Positions 3,499 through 27,477 of a stretch of 28,003 nucleotides of DNA are shown here, in pieces. The notes below the pieces were generated by a model. The model saw only the letters and a program-made list of their open reading frames with translations. It was not told the origin of the DNA and did no database searches. The stretch is taken from the NCBI GenBank assembly GCA_965205655.1, contig CBDBIJ010000006.1, forward strand, positions 1-28,003, given 5' to 3'. Numbering within the stretch: position 1 is the stretch's first letter; each line of letters opens with the position of its first letter. Source of the stretch: Candidatus Latescibacterota bacterium (GTDB lineage Bacteria > Latescibacterota > UBA2968 > UBA8231). A program made the translations under genes and the position numbers.

Positions 3499-3558
3499 GG
3501 ACGTCCTCTTTTTACGCCGACCCCGGCACGCCGGTTGCTCTCTCATCAAATCACTTAG

Positions 3559-5197
3559 CCTGAATAATTCATAAATTCGCTCAGGTTTGATCGGGATTCG
3601 GTAAATGATGAAGCACTGAGGCGTTTCTCGCTCAAGTGTGATTTTCGGGTCCGTGTTTCTTGGTCGTAGGTCGATGTGTCAGGCGGTGTTGCATTTCCTC
3701 CGGACAGACTGATCCCTTGGTCGTGCTGATGATCGATTTTTTGGTGCGTCGTCATCGTGCGCATTACGCGGTGTCGAGGTTGTAGACGATCAACCTCATC
3801 AAGTCCTTGAGCGGATATGACGTCGGAAAGTGAAAGCGCACCGTGGTGGTTTGCTCCCGTACTCTGGCGCCGATTTTGAGGACGCGGAGTTGGATCGTGT
3901 CGAAGTTGGACGTCGTCCATTGGGTAGCCTCGCATGCCGATATGTTTGATCGCGTGCACAAGCACATAGGCGGCGCTGTGCAGGAAGAGGCGGAATTGGT
4001 TTGCCGGGAATCGATGGCAGGAGGTCCGGTCGGAGTTCAGGAAGGTCTTGTGATTCTTGATGAACCCTTCCGATCGTCCGCGAGCACAGTAGACCTTCTC
4101 ATACAGAAACCTGGGCGTTCGGTTCCGAATGTTCGTGACCACAAAACGCGGGTTGGCCTTTCCTTGCGTAATCTCGGCCTTGTAGATGATCTGGCGCGGA
4201 CGGCTCCAGCTATCGGCCTGATAATCGAAGCGTGTAAAGAGCCGCACCGGCTTTTCGGTCTGCTCCGCCAGGGCGGCTGCCTGCTCCATCAGCGGTGCGC
4301 CGAGCGCTTTGAGCTTCTGGTTGACCGCTTGTCCGAGAATGAACGCTAGGCCGTATTCGTCGCACAGGTCGTGCACCTCCGGGGTGCTAAAGTGCGCGTC
4401 ACCACGCAAGGTGATCTGCACCTGCGGCCAGGCCATGAGGATATGATCCAGAACGCGTCTGAGAATCGCCGCGGCCTCGCGGCCACGGATTCTACGACCG
4501 GGTCGCAGAATGGTGGTGATCAACTTGCCTGTCTCTGCTTCGTAGAGATGGACGGGCAGGTAGCAGTACTCGTCATAGTAAGCGTGAAACAACGACAGTT
4601 GCTGTGAACCGTGCGTGGCATCATCCGTGTCATCAATGTCCAGGATGATCTTCTTCGGCGGCTTGTCGTAGGACTCGATGAATGTTTCCAGTAACGCGAG
4701 CCCGATTCGGTAGAGGTCCGTGCGGCTGATACTGTTCTCGAAACGAGACATGGTCGGTTGACTGGCCAGATCGGCTCCCGTCAGGGGGAGTCGATCGCAT
4801 GCTGCCTTCAGAGCCGGATCTGAACGCAGGTCGTTGCTGTCATTGGCGTCCTCGTACCCGCAGGCGATCTGGAAGACGCGCTGCTTGATGAGGTCGGTAT
4901 AGGTATGGTCGATATAGCTTTGATGTCGGCGATCACACAACGCCCTTACGATTCGGTCTACGATCCCTATCTTGGATTCCGCCTGCCGCAGGAGCAGGGC
5001 GCCCCCATCGCTGGTCGTCGTGCCGCCGTCAAAATCGGCTTCGATCTTCCTGCCCGAGATGCTTGCAAAGGATAACGTGATCTGCGACCTTTTCGTCGCG
5101 GTGTCCTCTCAAATGGTTGTTGTTTGTGTCCAACCCTAACTTAGGGCGAAACAACCAGTTGTACAAGAGGTCACCGCATTTTTATGAATAATTCAGG
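3559..5197 (-). mobile_element. IS1380-family insertion sequence, 1639 bp
   Basis: Terminal IRs CCTGAATAATTCATAAA (3559-3575) and TTTATGAATAATTCAGG (5181-5197), 16/17 match. Flanks TTAG (3555-3558) and CTAG (5198-5201) are not identical. Confidence 0.9.
3764..5099 (-). pseudogene. IS1380-family transposase (frameshifted, no canonical start codon)
   Basis: Reading upstream of 4940 gives FDGGTTTSDGGALLL. Motifs CGYEDAND, LASQPTMSRFEN, LDIDDTDD, LRGDAHF, YCARGRSE, ANQFRL. One extra base near 3926 shifts the C-terminus (TIQLRVLKIGARV) into ORF 3764-3967. The codon after the GAGAGGA RBS is GCG (5099). Confidence 0.85.
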
Positions 5198-10591: not shown

Positions 10592-10604
10592 AACGTGTAC
10601 CAGC

Positions 10605-11605
10605 GTGCTCGTAGTGACTGAACGCAAATCGACAGTACGCTGGGGAATCATCAGCACAGCTCGAATCGCCGAGACCGCCTTCGTACCGGCTGTACGTCAA
10701 ACCAGGCGAGGCGACTTGGTGGCCGTCGCCAGCCGCAGCCGCGAGAAAGCCGAGTCGTTCGCCGCGAAACACGGCATCCCCCGGGTCTTCGACGACTACG
10801 CCAGCCTGCTGGCCAGCGACGACATCGACGCTGTCTACAACCCCCTGCCGAACACGATGCATCGCGAGTGGACGGAGATGGCGGCAGAGAACGGAAAACA
10901 CGTTTTTCTGCGAAAAACCGCTCGCCACGTCAGTGGCGGATGCGGAACAGATGGTGCGCATCTGTCGCCAAGCGGGGGGTACTCCTGTTCGAGGCGTTCG
11001 TCTTCCTCTATCATCCGCAGACGCGCAGGCTGCGTCAGCTCATCGACGACGGCGCCATCGGCGACCTGTTGCAGCTGCACGCTCACATGTGCTTCCTTGT
11101 CCGGCGACCGACGGACAACATTCGCATGAACCGGCAGCTTGGAGGCGGCAGCCTGTTCGACGGGGGGTGCTATCCGATCACCTTCGCCCGCTTCGCCTTC
11201 GGCGATGAGCCCGTCGGCATTCAGTCCACCTGTCTGATGGATCCCGAGTACGGTGTCGACACGCGCGCCTGTCTATTGCTCGAATTCGCCGACAAACGTA
11301 CCGCGACGATTCAGGCCGGTTTCGACGCCTTCGGGGGCCAGTCAGCCGTGCTGTTCGGGAGCACGGGCTCGATCGAGATACCGAAACCCTACCATCCGGA
11401 GGAGCAGTCGAGCCTTGTCATCCGCAGACCGGATTCCGAGGAAAGAGTGCCGTTCGACAGCGGCGTCGTTCCGTTTGCGCCGGCGATCGAGCACTTCCAC
11501 GACTGCATTCTCGACGGCGCGGAGCCCATGGTCACGGCCGCCAACGCTTTTGGGACTTTGAAGATTATCGAACGTGTGCTGGAGTTGGAAGCACCGCATC
11601 CGTAG
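10605..11605 (+). CDS. Gfo/Idh/MocA family NAD(P)-dependent oxidoreductase (two apparent +1 frameshifts)
   Basis: VRWGIISTARIA, DAVYNPLPN, GKHVF(CEKP), GGGSLFDGGCY. Removing one T from T5 (10903-10907) and one G from G6 (10974-10979) restores a continuous frame including CEKP. Confidence 0.88.
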
Positions 11606-11695
11606 TTATACGGATATCAGTCCGAAAATCATTCTTGATGAGATGGGATCGGCTCCGTACCATTGGCGCAGACCCGAGAAAACCAACGGACAAAC

Positions 11696-12067
11696 ATGCC
11701 CAAGAAAAACGTCCTCGTCGTCGATGATTCCCCGTTCATTCGGGAAATGGTCTGCAAAATCCTCGACAAGTTGGGCTTCCTCTCGGTCAAGGCGTCTGAT
11801 GGAGACGAAGCCCTCGTCATCGCCGACCGATACACCCCGGACGCCTTCGTCCTGGACGTGAACATGCCCAAAATGAACGGCCTGCAGGTGCTCAGTAAAT
11901 TGCGGGAAGACGAGCGCTTCAAGGACACCCCCATCGTCATGCTCTCGGGCGTCAAGGACGAGGACATCGTCAAGAGCAGCATCCGCGGCAAAGCCACGGG
12001 GTACATCCTGAAAGACGATCCGAATGAGGTCATGAAGCGGCTCGGAAGCTACCTGGCCGATCTGTGA
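11696..12067 (+). CDS. Single-domain (CheY-like) response regulator
   Basis: VLVVDDS, phosphoacceptor in LDVNMPKMNG, IVMLS, GYILK. ATG at 11696 preferred over TTG at 11663. Confidence 0.92.
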   Translation: MPKKNVLVVDDSPFIREMVCKILDKLGFLSVKASDGDEALVIADRYTPDAFVLDVNMPKMNGLQVLSKLREDERFKDTPIVMLSGVKDEDIVKSSIRGKATGYILKDDPNEVMKRLGSYLADL

Positions 12068-12085
12068 AAATTACCGCCCTCACAT

Positions 12086-12119
12086 AAAAAAACCGGGCGC
12101 ATCGCTGCGACGCGCCCGG
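12086..12119 (-). terminator. Intrinsic terminator (minus strand)
   Basis: Stem CCGGGCGC/GCGCCCGG (12093-12100, 12112-12119), extended by a G-U pair on the minus strand, followed by T7 (12086-12092). Confidence 0.85.
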
Positions 12120-12334
12120 GATACCTCAGGTGACGCTGGCGGGTCAGGCCAGTGTCCATCCAGGTGATCAACCACCTGGTTCAGTCATTCGGAAGTCAGG
12201 TGGTCGACCTCCATAAGGGTATACTACTACTCAAAGACCACCTCCTTTCTATATCACCATGAGCGGCTAGCAACGCCCATGCGCATTTCTAATTGGTCGG
12301 CGCAGCGAATACATCTGCCTTCGTCGCAAGCTCT

Positions 12335-12373
12335 GCAGGAGTTTCGTCCGCAGGAGCCTCGTCGGCAGGAGCC
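12335..12373. repeat. Degenerate 15-bp tandem repeat (GCAGGAG core x3)
   Basis: GCAGGAG at 12335, 12350 and 12365, exact 15-bp period. Confidence 0.8.
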
Positions 12374-12427
12374 AACCAGGTCGGCGGGTATGCCTCAAAA
12401 TCGAACGACTGTCGCTCGATTCAACTG

Positions 12428-12459
12428 CAAATATACATATCGGACAAAAACGAAGTCAA
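12428..12459 (-). promoter_or_regulatory. Putative sigma70-type promoter
   Basis: Minus strand TTGACT (12459-12454), 18-bp spacer, TATATT (12435-12430). TATATTTG also matches the Bacteroidota-type TAnnTTTG element. Confidence 0.55.
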
Positions 12460-12521
12460 TTGAATTGTTGGCGTTTTGCGAGAGTCCTGCATGACTCGAT
12501 TTCCAATTTGTGGAAACTTGG

Positions 12522-12551
12522 CTTAACTTACGGAAGATACTTAACTTACGG
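12522..12551. promoter_or_regulatory. Pair of perfect 12-bp direct repeats (CTTAACTTACGG), probable protein-binding sites
   Basis: Copies at 12522-12533 and 12540-12551 in AT-rich DNA upstream of the minus-strand promoter. Confidence 0.5.
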
Positions 12552-12607
12552 TAATTCAAACTGATTGGAATGGCGGCCGCTCGACGTCGTCATCACTCGC
12601 TCCTCCC

Positions 12608-13513
12608 TCACCTTGCCTTCGAGCTTACGCCGCGGAGGCGGCCGAGGTCCAATTGCGTCGACAGTCCCAGCGTAAACTGCTGTCCGGTCGGGAAATTCCG
12701 CCCGTTAATCGTAGACCGAATGGCGATCTCCACGGCGGTGTCGCCGGCTACTCGGTACGACACCGTCGGACTCACGAACGTGACGCGCTTGATGAGCGAG
12801 CTGCTCCTGATGAAGCCGAAGTCCGTGCCGCTTTTACCGCGCAGGGCCTCCACTTTAAGCGCTACGAACACATTCGACGTCATGTTGTAGCCCAGCTCGC
12901 CGTTGAAGATCCATTCGTCCCCTGGATCGCGACCGGAATCGTCGTTCTCTGTCCTCACCCGGTAGCCGACATCCACGCTGCCGTACAGGGGAATTGGCCA
13001 CATCGATCGGCCCAGCTGAAGAACCAGATCGTAGTCTGCCTGCCCGTCACCTACTGGAATAAGGCCGTCCTCGTTGCGGAACTCGCCTGTGGGCAGCTTC
13101 GCCCCGGCTTTGAGGGTGAGGATGGCGGGCCTCTGAATAATTCGCCACTTCGCCAGCACCCGGATGTCGCTGAAGCCGCTGTCCGATTGCGGTTGGAGCC
13201 GAGTGTTGTCGACGAACTGCAGATCGAAGTACGGTACTTGTATCCCGACGTCTAGCCGGTCGGTGACACCGACAAAGCCCTCGATAAACACTGCCCTCGA
13301 TTCGTACTCCCCGCCGAACCTGTAAGGACGGCGGGAGCCGGCCTCGTAGAGACGGCCCGAGAACTCCGGCGAGGGGATATACCATTCGTCGGTGCGCTGC
13401 TGGAAGTAGGTGACCTTCGCCCACATCATTCCTCCCGGCAGCGTCCAGGCGCCTGCGAGCGCCGACTGCGCCGAACAGGTCAAAACGGTGACGACGGTGG
13501 TGATTCTCTTCAT
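12608..13513 (-). CDS. Secreted outer-membrane beta-barrel protein (MetA-pathway/'transporter'-like)
   Basis: Signal peptide MKRITTVVTVLTCSAQSALA-GAWT from ATG 13513. GVTDRLDVGIQVPY, GFSDIRV, KLPTG, PVGDGQ and alternating beta-strand pattern. Confidence 0.7.
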   Translation of the reverse strand: MKRITTVVTVLTCSAQSALAGAWTLPGGMMWAKVTYFQQRTDEWYIPSPEFSGRLYEAGSRRPYRFGGEYESRAVFIEGFVGVTDRLDVGIQVPYFDLQFVDNTRLQPQSDSGFSDIRVLAKWRIIQRPAILTLKAGAKLPTGEFRNEDGLIPVGDGQADYDLVLQLGRSMWPIPLYGSVDVGYRVRTENDDSGRDPGDEWIFNGELGYNMTSNVFVALKVEALRGKSGTDFGFIRSSSLIKRVTFVSPTVSYRVAGDTAVEIAIRSTINGRNFPTGQQFTLGLSTQLDLGRLRGVSSKAR

Positions 13514-13587
13514 GCTCGGGAATATACTTCTGGGCGCCGGATGGGCTCGATTGGCTGGCATGGGAGTCGTTTCGTTTCTTTCACCAC

Positions 13588-14879
13588 ATGCGCGTTATCG
13601 TACTCGGACTCAACCACACCACGGCTCCCGTGGAGATTCGCGAGCGGCTGGCGTTTTCGGAATCCGAGCAATCCGACGCTCTCAGTCTCATCAGGGAGCG
13701 TCATCGGCTCCCCGAAGCGGCCCTCCTCTCCACGTGCAATCGCACGGAGATCTACGGTGTTGACTCGGACGCGACTGGTTTCGACAACCTTCGAGAGTTC
13801 CTCGCGGCATCGCGCCGTGTCGATGTCGGCCAGCTCGGCGGCCACTTCTACGAGCTCGCAGACGCGGATGCCGCTCAGCATCTGTTTCGCGTCGCCTGCG
13901 GCATCGATTCCCTCGTCATCGGCGAGTCCCAGATTCTCGGTCAGGTGCGACAGACTCTGGAAATCGCCCAGCGCAGCGGCGCCGCAAGCCTTCTTGTCAA
14001 CGAGCTGTTCCAGCGCGCCCTGAAAGTCGGCAAACGCGCCCGCACCGAGACCGACATAGGCCGCGGCCGGCTGTCGATCAGTACCGCCGCCGTCGAGCTG
14101 GCCGGACAGATTTTCGATCGGCTGGAAGGCCGCGAAGCGCTGCTCATCGGAGCCGGCGAAATGATCGAGCTCACCGCCCAGTATCTCGTCGACAGCGGTA
14201 TTCGGCGCTTCATCGTCGCCAACCGGACCTTCGACAATGCCCGCGAGCTCGCCCGTCGATTTCGCGGCGAGGCCGTCGAGTTCGACCGCATCGAAGAGCA
14301 CCTCGGCGACATCGACATCCTCATTTCCTCCACCGGCTCACCCGATTTCCTCATCCGTCCCGAAATGATGCGAGGCGCCATGAGCCGTTCGCCGCCGGCC
14401 GCCCTCTTTTCATCATCGATATCGCTGTGCCGCGCGACGTCGATCCCGAGGTACGGCACCTCGATGACATCTACCTGTTCGATATCGATGATTTGCAGCA
14501 GGTCGTGGAGGCGAACCGGCACGAACGGGAAGACGAAATCCGCAATGTGCAGCTGCTCATCGACGAGGAGCACGCCGATTTCCAGCGCTGGTTCAAGGCT
14601 CTGGACTCGGGTCCAGTCATCCGGGCGCTGCGTCGGCAGGCGGAAGAGCTCCGCGCCCTGGAACTCGAAAAGTGGAGCGGAAAGCTCTCCCACCTCTCAG
14701 ACAACGACCGGCTGACCGTCGAGGCCCTGCTCAGAGGCTACGCCAACAAGCTTCTACACGAGCCCCTCGTTCAGATCCGCGAGCTCACCGGCGACCACGA
14801 CGGCTACGTCCGTCTCGATACGATTCGACGCCTTTTCAATATCGACGGCGTCGACGGTTCCTCGGAGAAAGACGCGTGA
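13588..14879 (+). CDS. hemA: Glutamyl-tRNA reductase (apparent frameshift near 14388-14397)
   Basis: GLNHTTAPVEIRE, catalytic STCNRTE, HLFRVACGIDSLVIGESQILGQV, IGAGEM, NRT, then IDIAVPRDVDP and NKLLHEP in the 14427-14879 frame. Confidence 0.95.
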
Positions 14880-20409: not shown

Positions 20410-21516
20410 GTGGCAACCTACATCCTGCGCCGACTGCTTCTCATGATTCCGACTCTGTTCGGGATCATGGTCGTCAACTTCGCCATCATCCAGGCGGCGC
20501 CCGGCGGACCGGTGGAACGCCTCATCGCACGCCTGCAGGGCCTCGAGGTGAGTGCCACGGCGCGCGTCGGCGGTGGGGAGCACGGCGACCTCAGCGAAGT
20601 CTCCCGTCAACTCGAGGGCGGTGCGGGGGGAGGGCGATATCGCGGCGCCCGCGGGCTCGACCCCGATCTCATTCGCGAGCTCGAGCGCCAGTTCGGATTC
20701 GACAAGCCCGCGCACGAGCGCTTCGTCCACATGATCGCCCGCTTTGTGCAGTTCGATCTGGGCCGCAGCTTCTACCGCGACGAGTCCGTCATCGATCTCA
20801 TCGCCGCCAAGCTGCCCGTTTCCATCTCTCTCGGTCTGTGGACGACCCTGCTTGTCTATTCGATTTCCATTCCGCTCGGCATCCGCAAGGCGACCGCCCA
20901 CGGCAGTCGCTTCGACCTGTGGACTTCCGGCGTCATCATCGTCGGCTATGCCATTCCCGCGTTCCTCTTCGCCATCCTTCTCATCGTCCTGTTCGCCGGC
21001 GGTCACTACCTGGACTGGTTTCCGCTCAGGGGGCTCACCTCAAATAGTTGGGATGCGATGACCCTCTCCGGCAAACTCGTCGACTACATCTGGCACCTGT
21101 GCCTGCCAATCCTGTCGATGGTGATCGGCGGTTTCGCCGGACTCACCCTGTTGACCAAGAACTCTTTCCTCGACGAGATACACAAACAATACGTCGTCAC
21201 CGCCCGGGCCAAGGGCCTGAGCGAGACGCGCATCCTCTACGGCCACGTCTTTCGCAACGCCATGCTCATCGTCATCTCGGGGTTTCCCGGCGCTTTCGTC
21301 GGCATCCTCTTCACCGGAGCGCTGCTGACGGAGATCATCTTTTCTCTCGACGGCCTCGGTCTGCTCGGCTACGAGGCCGCCCTCAATCGCGACTACCCGG
21401 TTGTCTTTGGCACTCTGTATCTGCTCACTCTCGTCGGCCTCCTAACCCAGTTGATCGGCGATCTCGTCTACACCGTCGTCGATCGCCGCATCGATTTCGA
21501 GAGAAGGGATCATTGA
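20410..21516 (+). CDS. yejB: ABC transporter permease YejB
   Basis: YILRRLLLMIPTLFGI, APGGPVE, YRGARGLD, LTKNSFLDEI, TARAKGL, HVFRNAML, FSLDGLG. Confidence 0.93.
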   Translation: MATYILRRLLLMIPTLFGIMVVNFAIIQAAPGGPVERLIARLQGLEVSATARVGGGEHGDLSEVSRQLEGGAGGGRYRGARGLDPDLIRELERQFGFDKPAHERFVHMIARFVQFDLGRSFYRDESVIDLIAAKLPVSISLGLWTTLLVYSISIPLGIRKATAHGSRFDLWTSGVIIVGYAIPAFLFAILLIVLFAGGHYLDWFPLRGLTSNSWDAMTLSGKLVDYIWHLCLPILSMVIGGFAGLTLLTKNSFLDEIHKQYVVTARAKGLSETRILYGHVFRNAMLIVISGFPGAFVGILFTGALLTEIIFSLDGLGLLGYEAALNRDYPVVFGTLYLLTLVGLLTQLIGDLVYTVVDRRIDFERRDH

Positions 21517-22625
21517 AGCTCTCTCCACTCGCGCGTCGGCGCCTCGGTAGCTTCCGGCGCCACCGCCGCGGCTGGTGGAGTCTCTGGCTCTTCCTCGTCC
21601 TGTTCGGGATGAGCCTGCCGGCCGAGTTTTTCGCCAACGATCGGCCCATCGCCGTCTGGTTCAACGGCCAGCTCTACTGCCCCGTCTTCGTCGACTACCC
21701 GGAGACCGACTTCGGCGGCGAGTTCGAGACCGCCACCGATTACCGCGACCCCGTCGTCCGGCAGCTCATCGACGTCAACGGCTGGATGCTGTGGCCGCCC
21801 ATTCGCTATGACTACCGGACAGTAAACTTCGACCTGCGCCGTCCCGCACCCTCGCCGCCGTCCGTGGAGAATCTGCTCGGCACGGACGATCAGGCTCGCG
21901 ACGTTCTCGCCAGGCTCATCTACGGTTTTCGCCTCTCCGTCCTCTTCGGCCTCTGCCTCACACTCGCCAGCTCGCTCATAGGCGTGGCCGCCGGTGCCGT
22001 GCAGGGCTATTTCGGCGGCTGGACCGATCTTCTTCTTCAGCGTCTCACCGAGATCTGGTCCGGGCTCCCCGTCCTCTACCTGCTCATCATTCTCGCCAGC
22101 GTCGTCGAGCCCGGCTTCTGGTGGCTTCTCGGGCTCATGCTGCTGTTCAGCTGGATGAGCCTCGTCGGGGTCGTGCGCGCCGAATTCCTGCGGGTGCGCA
22201 ACCTCGACTTCGTGCGCGCTGCCCGCGCCCTCGGTGTCGGCAATCTTCGCATTGTCTTCCGCCACCTGCTGCCGAACGCGATGGTCTCCACCCTGACTTT
22301 TCTTCCCTTCATTCTCACCGGCTCCATCGCCGTGCTCACTTCCCTCGATTTCCTCGGGTTCGGCCTGCCCGCCGGCTCCCCCTCTCTGGGCGAGCTGCTC
22401 GGTCAGGGCAAGCGCAACCTCCACGCACCATGGCTCGGCCTCACTGCGTTCGCCATTCTCGCCGCCACCCTCGCCCTCCTCGTCTTCATCGGCGAGGCCG
22501 TGCGAGACGCCTTCGATCCGCGCCGTTTTACGGTGCCGGCGGCCACCGAGGTGCGCCTGCAGCCCGCGCCGGCTGCCGGCAAACCGGTCGTGCCCGAGAG
22601 GCCCGTTTCACGGCGATCGAAATGA
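21513..22625 (+). CDS. yejE: ABC transporter permease YejE
   Basis: TTG start overlaps the yejB stop. RRGWWSL, YPETDFGG, LGTDDQARDVLARLIYGFR, VRAEFLR, SLDFLGFGLP, GEAVRDAFDPR. Confidence 0.92.
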   Translation: MKLSPLARRRLGSFRRHRRGWWSLWLFLVLFGMSLPAEFFANDRPIAVWFNGQLYCPVFVDYPETDFGGEFETATDYRDPVVRQLIDVNGWMLWPPIRYDYRTVNFDLRRPAPSPPSVENLLGTDDQARDVLARLIYGFRLSVLFGLCLTLASSLIGVAAGAVQGYFGGWTDLLLQRLTEIWSGLPVLYLLIILASVVEPGFWWLLGLMLLFSWMSLVGVVRAEFLRVRNLDFVRAARALGVGNLRIVFRHLLPNAMVSTLTFLPFILTGSIAVLTSLDFLGFGLPAGSPSLGELLGQGKRNLHAPWLGLTAFAILAATLALLVFIGEAVRDAFDPRRFTVPAATEVRLQPAPAAGKPVVPERPVSRRSK

Positions 22626-24233
22626 GTCTCCTCGAGATACAGGACCTGAGCGTCACCTTTCACGGCGATGAGTCGGGCGACGGGCGAGCCGCCGTCCATG
22701 CGGTCCGCAACGCCTCTCTCGATGTCGACGATGGAGAGACAGTCGCTCTCGTGGGCGAATCGGGCTCCGGCAAATCCGTCACCGCGCTGAGTGTCCTTCA
22801 GCTATTGCCTTATCCGGCGGCCACACATCCCTCCGGGAGCATCCGTCTCAACGGCGAGGAGCTGCTCGGCGCTCCCGCCTGTCGCCTGCAGTCGATCCGC
22901 GGCGACCGCGTCTCCATGATATTTCAGGAGCCCATGACGAGCCTGAACCCGCTCCACACTGTCGAACGGCAGGTGAGCGAAACCCTCGTTTTGCATCGCG
23001 ATTTGACTCGGAGTCAGGCACGCGAAAGGACCGTCGACCTCCTCGAGCAGGTGCAGCTCAGCGGCGCGTCGGACCGGCTCGACTCCTGGCCACATCAGTT
23101 ATCGGGAGGCGAGCGCCAACGCGTGATGATCGCCATGGCCCTGGCCAACGAGCCCGATCTTCTCATCGCCGACGAGCCCACGACCGCCCTCGATGTGACC
23201 ATTCAGGCGCAAATCCTCGAGCTTCTCGGTTCGCTGCAGCGGCAGCTGGGTATGGCCGTCCTCCTCATCACCCACGACCTCTCCATCGTGCGATTGCTGG
23301 CCGAGCGTGTCTTTGTCATGAAGGACGGGGTAGTCGTCGAGGCGGGAGCCACTGAAGAAATCTTTCGAGCTCCGAAGCATCCCCACACTCGTGGGCTCAT
23401 CGACGCGGAGCCGCCGATTCGAAAGTCTGAGATCAATCCTCATCCCCCTCCACTCGTTATCGAGGCGCGCGACCTGAAGGTTCACTTTCCGATTCAACGC
23501 GGCCTCCTTCGCCGCCACTGTGGACCATGTCAGAGCTGTCGATGGGGTCTCCGTGCAGCTCCGCGCCGGACAGACCGTCGGCCTCGTCGGCGAATCCGGT
23601 TCGGGAAAGACCTCCTTCGCCCTGGCCTTGCTCAGACTCATCGCCAGCGACGGTGAAATCCTTTTGGATCGCCATCGCGACTTGCGTCAGATCAGCAGCA
23701 AGCAGTTGCGACCCCTTCGCCGGCAGCTGCAGATCGTATTCCAGGACCCCTTCGCGTCCCTGTCACCGCGCATGTCGGCCCTTCAAATCATCGAGGAGGG
23801 ACTGCGCGTTCACGAGCCGGGGATCGCCTACGATGATCGCCGTCAAAGGACGGCGGACGTAATGAGCGACGTGGGCCTGCAACCTGATGCGATGGACCGC
23901 TACCCCCACGAATTCTCAGGCGGACAGCGCCAGCGGATCGCAATCGCCAGGGCCCTCATTCTGCGGCCGAAGCTGCTCGTACTCGACGAGCCCACCAGTG
24001 CCCTCGACCGCACCGTGCAACTGCAGATCATCGAGCTCCTCAGCGACCTGCAGGCACGCCATTCACTCGCCTATCTGTTCATCAGTCACGACCTGCGCGT
24101 CGTGCGAGCCCTCGCCGACGAGCTGATTGTGCTCAGGAGTGGAGTGATCGTGGAGCGGGGCCCCACCGAGCAGATCTTCGCCGAGCCGAAAACCGAATAC
24201 ACCCGGGCGCTGATCTCGGCGGCGATGCTGTGA
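22622..24233 (+). CDS. yejF: Fused double-domain ABC ATPase YejF-like (apparent +1 frameshift near 23516)
   Basis: ATG overlaps the yejE stop. Two Walker A motifs ([16 protein letters not shown]), signatures LSGGERQR and FSGGQRQR, two DEPT motifs. Removing one C in CGCCGCCACTGTG gives [14 protein letters not shown]. Confidence 0.88.
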
Positions 24234-24340: not shown

Positions 24341-26034
24341 ATGGTGCTGAAGTATGCCTTGGCGAAGAGCTTGATCGCATTGGTTGCCATGTTGTCGCTG
24401 CGCACGGGCATCTCGGCCGCCGAAATCGACTCACAGCGGCTCATCGATGCCGCTGGAGAGCCGGAGAACTGGATGACCTACTCAGGCACCTACAACGCCT
24501 GGCGTTACAGCCCGCTGGATCAGATCGATCGCGGCAACGTCACTGACATGGCGCCGGTGTGGGTGCGCCAGACCGGGACTGTGGATGGAGGGTTCTCCTG
24601 TACGCCTCTAGTCGCCGACGGCGTCATGTACATCTCCTCCCCCTGGAACCGGGTGTTCGCCGTCGACGCCGCGACCGGCAATGAGCTGTGGCACTACTAC
24701 CATCCAAAGCCGGCGGAATACGGCCTCATCTACCCACCCACGAACCGCGGCGTCGCCCTCGCGGACGGACTCGTGTTCATGGGGACTCTCGACAACTATC
24801 TGATCGCGCTGGACGCCGAAACTGGAGAAGAGGTCTGGAAAGTGCAGGTTGACGATGTCAGCGTCTGCGGCTGCAACATCACCGGCGCCCCGCTCGTGGT
24901 GAAGGACAAAGTCATCATCGGCGGCACCGGGGGAGACTCGGCCCATCGCGGCTACCTCAATGCCTTCGATACGAAGACGGGCAAGCACGTCTGGAAGTTC
25001 TGGACCATCCCGGCCCCGGAGAGAAGGGGAACGACACCTGGATGGGCGACAGCTGGAAGTTCGGGGGCGGCGCCACCTGGCTGACGGGATCCTACGATCC
25101 GGAGCTCGATCTTCTGTATTGGGGAATCGGCAATCCGGCAGCCGATTTCTACGGCGAAAGAGCGGATGGGAGCCAATCTCTACACCGACTGCATCGTGGC
25201 GCTGGATCCCGACAACGGCGAGCTCAAGTGGTACAATCAGCTAATTCCCCACGACGTCTGGGACTGGGATACTACGTATGAGCAGGTGCTCGTCGATCTG
25301 CCCGTCGGCGGCAAAGAGCGCAAGCTCCTCGTCCACCCGAGCAAAGGTGGCTACACATGGGTACTCGATCGCACGAACGGCGAATTCGTCGGCGCTTGGC
25401 CGCTGGTCGAAAACATCAACTGGATCAGCGGCATCGATGAAAACGGCAACCTTCTCGGACGTTACGAGCCGCCCGTGGACGAGCCGAGCATTATCTGCCC
25501 AGCCATTGGCGGCGGGCGCAGCTGGAACCACGCCGCCTACAGCCCCCGCACCGGTCTGCTTTACACCACCGGAATCGAGTGGTGCCAAGGAGGTGATCGC
25601 CCAGAAGGGAAGAGCCGAAACGGGGTGAGCTGTTTCTGGGAGGCGTCTTCGAGCTCCGACCGACACCGTCGGGTAATCAAGGTAGTCACTTCAATGCCTT
25701 CGACCCCGTGACCGGCGAGAAGCGCTGGAGTTACAAAGCGAAATATCCCCTGCTGGCTTCCTCACTTGCCACTGGCGGCGATCTCGTATTCACCGGTGAC
25801 CCCGAGGGGGCTTTCATGGCGTTCGATGCCGTCACCGGAGACAAGCTCTGGAGCTTCACACCGGTTCGGGGCATCGCGGCTCGGCCATCACCTACCTCGG
25901 TCGATGGCCGTCAATACGTCGCCGTGCCTTCCGGCTGGGGGTCTGCCGTGGCCGGCTCTTGCCGCAGCTCTGGCCGGGAGACGGAGGACTTTCCGGGTGG
26001 TGGTGCGCTCTTCGTGTTTGCGCTGAAGGAATAG
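24341..26034 (+). CDS. Periplasmic PQQ-dependent dehydrogenase (methanol/ethanol family fold), multiple apparent frameshifts
   Basis: Signal peptide, [81 protein letters not shown]. Spread over at least four frames (shifts near 25020, 25165, 25590-25620, 25860-25980). Confidence 0.88.
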
Positions 26035-26051: not shown

Positions 26052-27477
26052 CGCTTTGTCCCGATCTTAGTTGAAACAGCACAGCTCCAAATCGTTACGT
26101 TTTGATACGAGAAGCCCGTTGGAAGAAGTCTCGCATCGGTAACGATGGGGAGCCTGCAATGAGCAAGCTGGTAGCACGGAGAAGGGCGTCAAACGAACGG
26201 TGAGCATCGGCAAGGTAGCACCCGAGACTGCAGAGCAAGTAGAGGACCTGGATGGCCGGATCGAGGCGATCCAATGGCTGATTCCTTGGGGCTGCAGGCG
26301 GTCGCGGAGGAGCTGCAAAGAGCGGTCGTTGAGTTGGCTGGGCCGCGGTATCAGCGCAAGGGGTCGGATCAGCCGTTACGCCGCTGGGGGTCTCAGCTCG
26401 GGTCGGTGTACCTGGCCGACCAGAAACTACCCGTCGATGTGCCGCGGGTGCGCAACGTGGCCAACCATACCGAGGTCCCGCTGGATGTTTACCAGGCACT
26501 GCAGACGCCTCGACAGATGGACGAAGGTCTGCTGTTGCGGATGCTGAAGGGCATCGCCACGCGCAACTACGAGGCCTGCGCTGAGGCCGTACCCGAGGCC
26601 TTTGGTCTGTCATCCTCATCGGTGTCCTGTCGTTACGTGAAAGGCACGGCTCGAAAGCTGGCTGAATTCCAGGAGCGATCCCTGGAAGGATATGATCTGG
26701 TGACGCTATTCCTCGACGGCAAGAGCTTCGCGGACGAGGAGATCATCATCGCCCTGGGCGTCACCCTCGACGGACAGAAGATCCCTCTTGGCTTCGTGCA
26801 GGCGGCCACGGAAAACGAGCGCGTCTGCCGTCGCTTCTGTCCGATCTGGTCGAACGCGGTATGCAGTACGAAGCCGGACTGTTGGTCGTCATCGACGGCG
26901 CCAAGGGGCTTTACAAGGCGGTGATGTCGGTGCTCAAAGGACATGCCTGCGTGCAGCGCTGCCAGTATCACAAGCGCCAGAACGTCGTGTCGTATCTGTC
27001 CAAGAGCGAGCAGTCCGGTATGGGTCGCAAGATGGAGGCGGCCTACGGCAAACCGAGATACGAGGCGGCCAAGGCGGCACTGGACGCGCTCAAACCGGGC
27101 TTGAAGTTGATGAATCAGTCCGCCCTACACAGCCTCGAGGAAGGCATGGAAGAGACCCTCACACTCCATCGGTTGGGACTGACGCCGATGCTCAAGGATT
27201 CCTTCCGCACCACCAACTGCATCGAGAACGTCAACAGTCTCCTGGAGCAGCTCACACACAACGTGCGACGCTGGACCAACTCATCACAGCGTCACCGTTG
27301 GGTAGCCACGGCACTGCTCGACATCGAACCACGTCTGCGCAGGGTCAAGGGCTATCGCCATCTGCCGATGCTCCGGCAAGCCATACAAGCCGAACTCGGC
27401 ATCAAACAGCTCGCGATGATGGGCTGACACACTCACCCGAGCCTGTGATTTGTTTCAACTGAAACTGGGCCTTGACC
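26052..27477 (+). mobile_element. IS256-family element (copy 1)
   Basis: Imperfect IRs sharing the perfect core AGTTGAAACA (26069-26078) / TGTTTCAACT (27451-27460). Outer ends approximate; no target duplication found. Confidence 0.75.
26159..27427 (+). pseudogene. IS256-family (mutator-type) transposase with at least three frameshifts
   Basis: GGGGAG RBS and ATG 26159. VPRVR, GIATRNY, LFLDGK, ALGVTLDG, VIDGAKGL, QRCQYHK, TTNCIE across ORFs 26200, 26274-26924 and 26861-27427. Confidence 0.88.

Follow-up and report, generated by a model that had tools for sequence, protein, structure and literature searches.

The minus strand at 12086-12459 of the window (the whole stretch of 28,003 nucleotides analyzed here) has the outline of a transcription unit with no long gene inside it, which raises the question of whether this element is a gene and, if so, what its RNA might do. 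Taken alone, the sequence makes a weak case for a gene, because the number of promoter-like sites in the element (one) matches what shuffled sequences lead one to expect (mean 0.9) and because folding beats that of shuffles on the plus strand (z -3.61) as well as on the minus strand (z -3.94). What settles the question is the conservation of the promoter pattern, the 5' hairpin and the terminator across homologues.

Promoter, terminator and surroundings of the element

A sequence scan places a sigma-70-type promoter, TTGACT-18-TATATT, on the minus strand at 12459-12430 (-35 at 12459-12454, -10 at 12435-12430). The same pattern lies 108-228 nt 5' of the Shine-Dalgarno (SD) sequence in 21 of 24 homologous loci (27 loci fetched, less two chance hits and one duplicate), and 6-7 nt 5' of the SD in 18 loci of the sister family f4. 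The 11-bp hairpin at the 5' terminus (12398-12422) varies in sequence between genera while the hairpin itself is kept; in 16 of the 24 same-family loci with the promoter, a hairpin within the first 36 nt is better than in shuffles (p<=0.05). The unit closes with an intrinsic terminator, a 12-bp stem followed by seven T residues (12086-12119), and two-sided changes occur in six of ten stem pairs in the homologue alignment. The predicted transcript runs on the minus strand from a putative start site at 12424 to 12086 (~338 nt), and an RNA-Seq contig covers part of it. By these comparisons of sequence, the element is a real, conserved small RNA gene.

Much of what a sequence-only reading had proposed for the locus was borne out. 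The promoter, the hairpin at the predicted +1, the stems at 12243-12198, 12179-12160 and 12156-12132 (all present in computed folds) and the GC stem with its T7 terminator were recovered; the terminator lies far from the nearest minus-strand gene, which ends at 12608; ARAGORN gave no tRNA or tmRNA call; no Rfam family reached its gathering score on the window; and the homologues collected carry two-sided changes in the terminator stem and in the B:C and P0 helices described below. The conserved promoter, terminator and ORF likewise support an independently expressed minus-strand RNA with a micro-ORF. The proposed length of ~340 nt agrees with our prediction for this locus but is lineage-specific, as sequence conservation is confined to the 3' ~170 nt and the sister family f4 is leaderless. 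The remark that no normal gene is present holds for long genes and fails for a conserved 12-codon ORF behind the strongest SD of the genome.

Positions 12114-12377 are covered by a 264-nt contig in each of two RNA-Seq runs (depth 87 and 28), and one of the runs also contains a 241-nt contig of a relative's homologue at depth 554. In RNA runs X7 and X8, three of the 30 bins of 10600-14200 have depth, all three on the element, and the missing cover elsewhere proves nothing, these being assembled contigs from one sample. We read these data as a hint of transcription only, since the contigs come without strand, ends or level and since both runs, from a single marine metatranscriptome sample, were retrieved by searching with this 28,003-nt stretch.

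Of the two flanking genes, the plus-strand one encodes a receiver domain alone (PF00072) and the minus-strand one a PF13557 protein. This arrangement invites the view that the RNA is a base-pairing sRNA of the conventional sort, with the convergent response regulator or the ribosome-binding sites of mRNAs as its target, and two strands of the RNA (B and C, below) do contain CCACC, which could pair with SD-like sequence. We regard such a role as highly improbable. The terminator ends ~19 nt short of the regulator's stop codon; no homologue of the regulator occurs among the longest ORFs beside other loci; and the conserved open region of the RNA is the SD itself, not an anti-SD. The functional link to the regulator that had been suggested is thus unsupported, and antisense control of that gene was rejected for want of overlap and of a conserved neighborhood. 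Neighbors vary across same-family loci, with the PF13557 gene common to five. In 18 loci of f4, the leaderless form (L166-L186) has an ABC permease gene on one side and, directly downstream, two ORFs that we take to be rplM and rpsI, encoding ribosomal proteins L13 and S9.

Two Shine-Dalgarno motifs around a twelve-codon reading frame

The defining feature of the element is an extended SD (SD1; 12235-12251, minus strand), which pairs without interruption over 17 positions (15 Watson-Crick, two G-U) with the predicted 3' tail of the 16S rRNA encoded by the same genome. At -28.3 kcal/mol, this duplex is the strongest among 28,032 SD-like windows of the source genome, the antisense strand of the rRNA gene excepted, and it spans the 16S tail from helix 45 into the bases after the anti-SD. 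Directly behind SD1 stands a micro-ORF (12196-12234, minus strand) with a TTG start, 12 codons (MSSSIPLWRSTT) and a TGA stop. Start, open frame and stop are kept in all 37 distinct same-family ORFs, drawn from 90 partly redundant loci and exclusive of three ATG loci of genus g12 that fall beyond the spacing range of the script. The 37 are 10-13 codons long, begin with TTG (28) or GTG (nine) and end with TGA (35), TAA (one) or TAG (one); their lengths vary by whole codons, and the stop is retained even at the cost of a base pair.

A second SD-like motif (SD2, GGAGGU; 12207-12212, minus strand) lies inside the micro-ORF, its GAGG ending 9 nt before the stop codon. This distance is 9-10 nt in 35 of the 37 distinct same-family ORFs, where SD1 stands 6-7 nt from the start codon and SD2 the same 6-7 nt from the last sense codon. 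So that SD2 itself played no part in the selection, metagenomes were also scanned for SD1 plus a start codon only; this returned 119 loci, 114 of them distinct and with a stop, and 104 of these with 8-20 codons. Of the 104, 95 have 9-11 nt between the end of GAGG and the stop, compared with a mean of 2.7 (maximum 9) in shuffles and with 75 of 2890 long ORFs of the source genome (2.6%). The metagenomic SD2 falls in reading frames 0, 1 and 2 in 73, 27 and 3 cases, respectively, and the two SD spacings differ in this set (mostly 7-12 versus 7-8 nt).

Could the product be a functional peptide of 10-13 residues, with the RNA features merely keeping its level very low? The frame, start and stop kept in 37 of 37 ORFs speak for it, as do a common N-terminal Ser-Ser and the conservation of the peptides RreB and RreR, each within its own clade, reported in the sections of PMC5711450 available to us. 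The same sections describe synthetic RreB and RreR as unstructured. The 3' end of the ORF is one nucleotide motif translated as WRSTT, GGETT or GRLIT; the peptides are alike within genera, differ by frame in their C-terminal half between genera, and are unlike between genera and phyla. A functional peptide is accordingly quite unlikely; as far as comparison of sequences can tell, the peptide is poorly conserved and the conserved item is the spacing of SD2 to the stop.

Several variants of this plan were observed. The source genome carries a second, paralogous two-SD micro-ORF unit, with an SD1 of ordinary length, on the minus strand at the end of contig C129. The paralogous units there and in relatives (L405-L407, L409-L413) have 10-12 codons, a hairpin and a terminator, and their GAGG stands ~9 nt from the stop codon, so that SD2 still precedes the stop where SD1 is ordinary; in the relatives, a conserved GTGCATCC lies ~90 nt upstream and is possibly an alternative promoter or leader motif. 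Locus L423 (G153:C2) and similar pattern matches in genus g13 place the extended SD before a two-codon ORF (ATG, Arg, stop), possibly a minigene variant. Finally, L009:1495-1690 (G013) keeps the promoter, leader, SD1 and ORF, with SD2 altered and strand C and the usual terminator missing, and is a natural truncation or insertion.

Alternative folds and the 5' leader

Pairing was counted in a 23-row alignment of homologues. A closing helix, P0, joins the middle of the ORF (12218-12222) to the bases just before the terminator (12125-12121); 80% of its 105 cells are paired, and four of its five pairs show two-sided changes, from few independent events. A switch strand B (12198-12205) has two possible partners, SD1 (12243-12236) or strand C (12160-12179), the latter forming its own hairpin in one fold and a 15-bp helix with SD2 and strand B in the other. 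Hairpin D (12132-12156) is variable and absent from some homologues. The B:C helix, which joins SD2 and the ORF end to the downstream strand, is paired in 92.7% of cells, against 25-51% in slid controls, with two-sided changes in three of 15 pairs. For the alternative fold, the values are 98.9% for SD1:B, a figure to be read in the light of SD1 being constrained anyway, and 97.5% for the strand C hairpin, with one-sided changes only. Only one of 14 same-family helices has a U facing the A of SD2, indicating that the partner strand avoids being a full anti-SD.

In the core of the element the two folds are level (-70.1 versus -70.2 kcal/mol), and they come within 3 kcal/mol of each other in only 10 of the 23 homologues. 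Bistability does not appear to be general, however, as the B:C fold is favored in 20 of 23 and has a probability of 0.94 in the full-length RNA of the element. For loci beyond the family, a duplex test gave weak results (B:C in 14 of 99, SD1:B in 17 of 99), and a helix of at least 8 bp starting at SD2 occurred in 10 of 91 (contiguous) and 38 of 99 loci, which is an enrichment, yet a minority. A universal bistable switch is thus unsupported outside the family.

Upstream of SD1, the leader domain (12294-12378) consists of a closing helix, read by eye and uncounted, around a variable insert, with GCUGC (12306-12302) on its 3' side. The leader is ~174 nt long here and 71-191 nt in same-family loci, and it is absent from f4 (6-7 nt before the SD). 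The loop of the terminator, GCAGC at 12108-12104, is complementary to the leader GCUGC, which allows for a different reading: the leader would sense a ligand or protein and thereby govern termination or the accessibility of SD1, for instance by a GCUGC/GCAGC kissing contact. Consistent with this, GCTGC is present in 18 of 18 leaders of one subclade and GCAGC in the 3' hairpin of 17 of these 18 loci, neither occurring at those places in 16 loci of another subclade (GCTGC in 0 of 16 leaders), and L011 keeps its GCAGC hairpin although a further hairpin follows. No covariation or compensatory change was seen in the contact, which could be one inherited event; the leaders of other subclades are unrelated, f4 has none, and no Rfam riboswitch matched. 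A sensing leader is thus very doubtful. A kissing contact in the second subclade was also considered and rejected (complementarity by eye in some g13 loci, missing in g15 and L020/L022), as were two features that lie in the variable leader insert and are unshared by homologues, namely CsrB-like GCAGGAG repeats on the plus strand and an Ala/Pro/Glu-rich frame at 12420-12289.

Relation to rre genes and a possible role at the ribosome

The rre kind of gene is itself already published. In the parts of their paper that we could consult, Hahn et al. (RNA Biol 14:1353, PMC5711450) place rre genes only in Alphaproteobacteria and leave them without function. Their rreB RNA measures 165 nt, and its 17-nt match to the 16S tail leads into a 14-codon ORF that opens with GTG; the RNA sediments together with 30S, shows weak translation, and has a half-life that rises from 10 to 37 min (~3.7-fold) on a start-to-stop change. 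Twenty-fold overexpression left growth unaffected, which disfavors simple ribosome sequestration (PMC5711450, same parts). A literature search on rreB and the Shine-Dalgarno sequence found only this paper.

As far as those parts go, the element resembles rreB and rreR as a stand-alone small RNA that matches the 16S tail over 16-17 nt and has a weak start, a short ORF (14 or 18 codons there), hairpins, a terminator and an SD partly in predicted pairing. Of the properties that mark rre genes, it has at least 16 nt complementary to the host 16S 3' end (17 pairs, two of them G-U, where the match of rreB is perfect), a short ORF behind the extended SD with the usual non-ATG start (TTG, 12 codons), and its own promoter and terminator conserved in the clade. 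It differs in that the last complementary base is not the first base of the start codon, as with the GTG there (the match ends at 12235 and the TTG begins at 12234), and in its leader, ~174 nt compared with ~8 nt in a ~165-nt RNA that starts a few bases before the SD. It also belongs to another phylum, shows no peptide similarity, and has a second SD before the stop, a feature that the consulted parts of PMC5711450 do not mention for rreB or rreR. Added relative to the known rre kind, judging from the alignments, are the 71-191-nt structured leader and the two alternative folds. The sequence-only reading had named the element a candidate for something undescribed, which stands insofar as no Rfam family reaches its cut-off and falls with respect to the anatomy, which is that of rreB and rreR (PMC5711450, in part), and to two apparent distant kin.

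The first of these is CC2171 (RF01867), a Caulobacter sRNA and the only informative one among six weak Rfam matches at E<=10. CC2171 has an extended SD and start codon near its 5' end, a terminal hairpin, and a helix from the middle of the ORF to just before the last hairpin, in the same place as P0 of the element; its middle region does not align, and Rfam files it as a non-coding sRNA. The element scores 13.8 bits and the best same-family locus 37.4 bits against a cut-off of 75, which none of 21 genomes reaches. Since the primer used to clone rreB starts like the CC2171 consensus, rreB probably belongs to CC2171. The second is Ms_IGR-5 (RF02471), an actinobacterial sRNA whose consensus holds the same SD1, a start codon and GAGGUG before the stop, with SD1 paired to the ORF end; it is termed validated but uncharacterized in the portions seen of 10.1101/2021.12.14.472595 (see also PMC10454040). 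Ms_IGR-5 gave no match at E<=10 to 11950-12700, and a Latescibacterota locus related to the sister families reached 39.1 bits, under the cut-off of 45. Loci from pattern searches exceeded that cut-off (98.5, 95.2 and 51.6 bits), the same pattern set giving 34-38 bits against CC2171, and these searches also turned up ORFs of 18 codons with a GTG start in Rhodobacteraceae, along with 14-codon ORFs similar to the beginning of RreB. The Rhodopirellula-1 motif was set aside, as its alignment, in what we saw of the PMC2864571 supplement, is unrelated.

We then assessed how widely the plan is distributed. A DNA search of 60 relatives matched the 3' ~170 nt only, in 23 of 36 same-family genomes; a covariance model of the conserved core found matches, mostly single ones, in 69 of 75 genomes of the family and in 108 of 132 of the class; and the pattern of extended SD plus start occurred in 123 of 131 other class genomes and 6 of 36 outside the class, compared with 5 of 168 in a backwards control. 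Among 30 pattern loci fetched, 26 had ORFs of 9-15 codons. A GTDB scan requiring both SD motifs returned at least 117 loci, with Actinomycetota (86), Acidobacteriota (10), Pseudomonadota (nine), Planctomycetota (five) and others among the matches listed, and the two-SD micro-ORF plan was found in at least eight named phyla; these counts overstate independent events, the loci being related to one another. A named Latescibacterota locus clusters with the sister-family elements with 99% local support, an indirect sign that the window probably comes from this phylum. Phage records gave no match, and 46 pattern matches in viral contigs comprised 40 of one 16-codon ORF type without the anatomy of the element and one that is rreB-like. 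From its pattern, present in at least eight phyla and nearly every class genome, the element looks like a housekeeping gene. For 80 named loci of other phyla, the scores of model R1 reached at most 38.3 bits, to which SD1 and the terminator contributed most; descent of all these from one ancestor is therefore undemonstrated. The element would work like an rre gene, and shared descent with CC2171 or Ms_IGR-5 is plausible on sequence grounds.

What might such an RNA do? We favor, with a probability of roughly 60%, a stand-alone small mRNA of the rre type that would act via its contact with the ribosome and not via its peptide. By analogy with rreB, SD1 would capture the 30S subunit tightly and initiation would be slow. 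The translating ribosome would open the long helix in which SD2 and the stop codon are otherwise buried; once that codon is in the A site, SD2 would stand 6-7 nt from the P-site codon, as SD1 does from the start. Because these two spacings are equal, the 16S tail could pair again at the stop, in this case with SD2, and retain the ribosome, or its 30S subunit, as it terminates. On release, strand B could refold onto SD1 and shut the entry site, or else the RNA would be cut, and the RNA would in this way report or buffer the supply of free 30S subunits and the cycle of initiation, termination and recycling.

This ribosome-contact reading draws on SD1 as the best 16S match of the genome, on a distance from SD2 to the stop that is fixed across frames, and on paralogues that keep SD2 before the stop with an ordinary SD1. 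Against it, structure alone could account for the fixed SD2, as a copy of SD1 sharing its partner strands; moreover, the changes in SD1:B are one-sided and the two SD spacings differ in the metagenome set. A related view is that the RNA acts on immature or idle 30S subunits, where the match would cover the free 16S tail and protect it, guide its trimming or test it, the ORF serving only to release the subunit. The f4 gene lies, in 18 loci, upstream of the ORFs that we recognize as presumably those of L13 and S9, which would suit this view. So would a match that spans the tail from helix 45 past the anti-SD and, from the parts consulted of PMC5711450, the presence of rreB on 30S. It leaves the fixed distance from SD2 to the stop unexplained, neighbors vary in the element's own family, and we consider it unlikely.

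Extending the ribosome-contact reading, we tentatively suggest, as a possibility with somewhat worse than even odds, that rreB/CC2171, Ms_IGR-5 and the element form one previously unrecognized, multi-phylum class of bacterial housekeeping RNAs in which two SDs bracket a dummy ORF. SD1 would load the 30S subunit, SD2 would re-anchor the ribosome with the stop in the A site, and each round of translation would flip the fold or commit the RNA to decay, such that the RNA senses or parks ribosomes at termination and recycling. If true, this would be a natural device using SD pairing at termination, and it would join three orphan RNA families, CC2171 and Ms_IGR-5 having been filed as unrelated non-coding RNAs while the same two-SD plan is seen across at least eight phyla. 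SD-like sequence just upstream of a stop is known from the internal-SD recoding or pause sites of prfB, where the SD-to-stop spacing is shorter than in the element, and translation of a short ORF alters RNA folding in leader-peptide attenuators; in contrast to both, the transcript of the element has no downstream gene, second frame or regulatory codon run. A literature search, with subscription journals mostly uncovered, found no paper on the fixed spacing of SD2 to the stop, on a link between rre genes, CC2171 and Ms_IGR-5, or on such genes in this lineage.

Some observations concern the surroundings of these elements. In L073 (286-454 and 576-665), a two-SD element lies ~120 nt from a tRNA gene, and rreB likewise adjoins a tRNA gene (PMC5711450, as far as consulted). 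Between the upstream gene and the promoter of the element, 12519-12553 holds a direct repeat of 12-13 bases (CTTAACTTACGG twice), a possible operator. Elsewhere in the window, genes at 10605-11605, 13588-14879, 20410-24233 and 24341-26034 are split across frames; they include what we take to be a Gfo/Idh/MocA oxidoreductase, hemA, an ABC transporter and a PQQ-type dehydrogenase. The splits are probably sequence errors in the assembly, as run X5 has single-base indels at 10903, 10974 and 14031. The ORFs at 848-2269, 3555-4940 and 26274-27427 are presumably IS transposases, to judge from their appearance.
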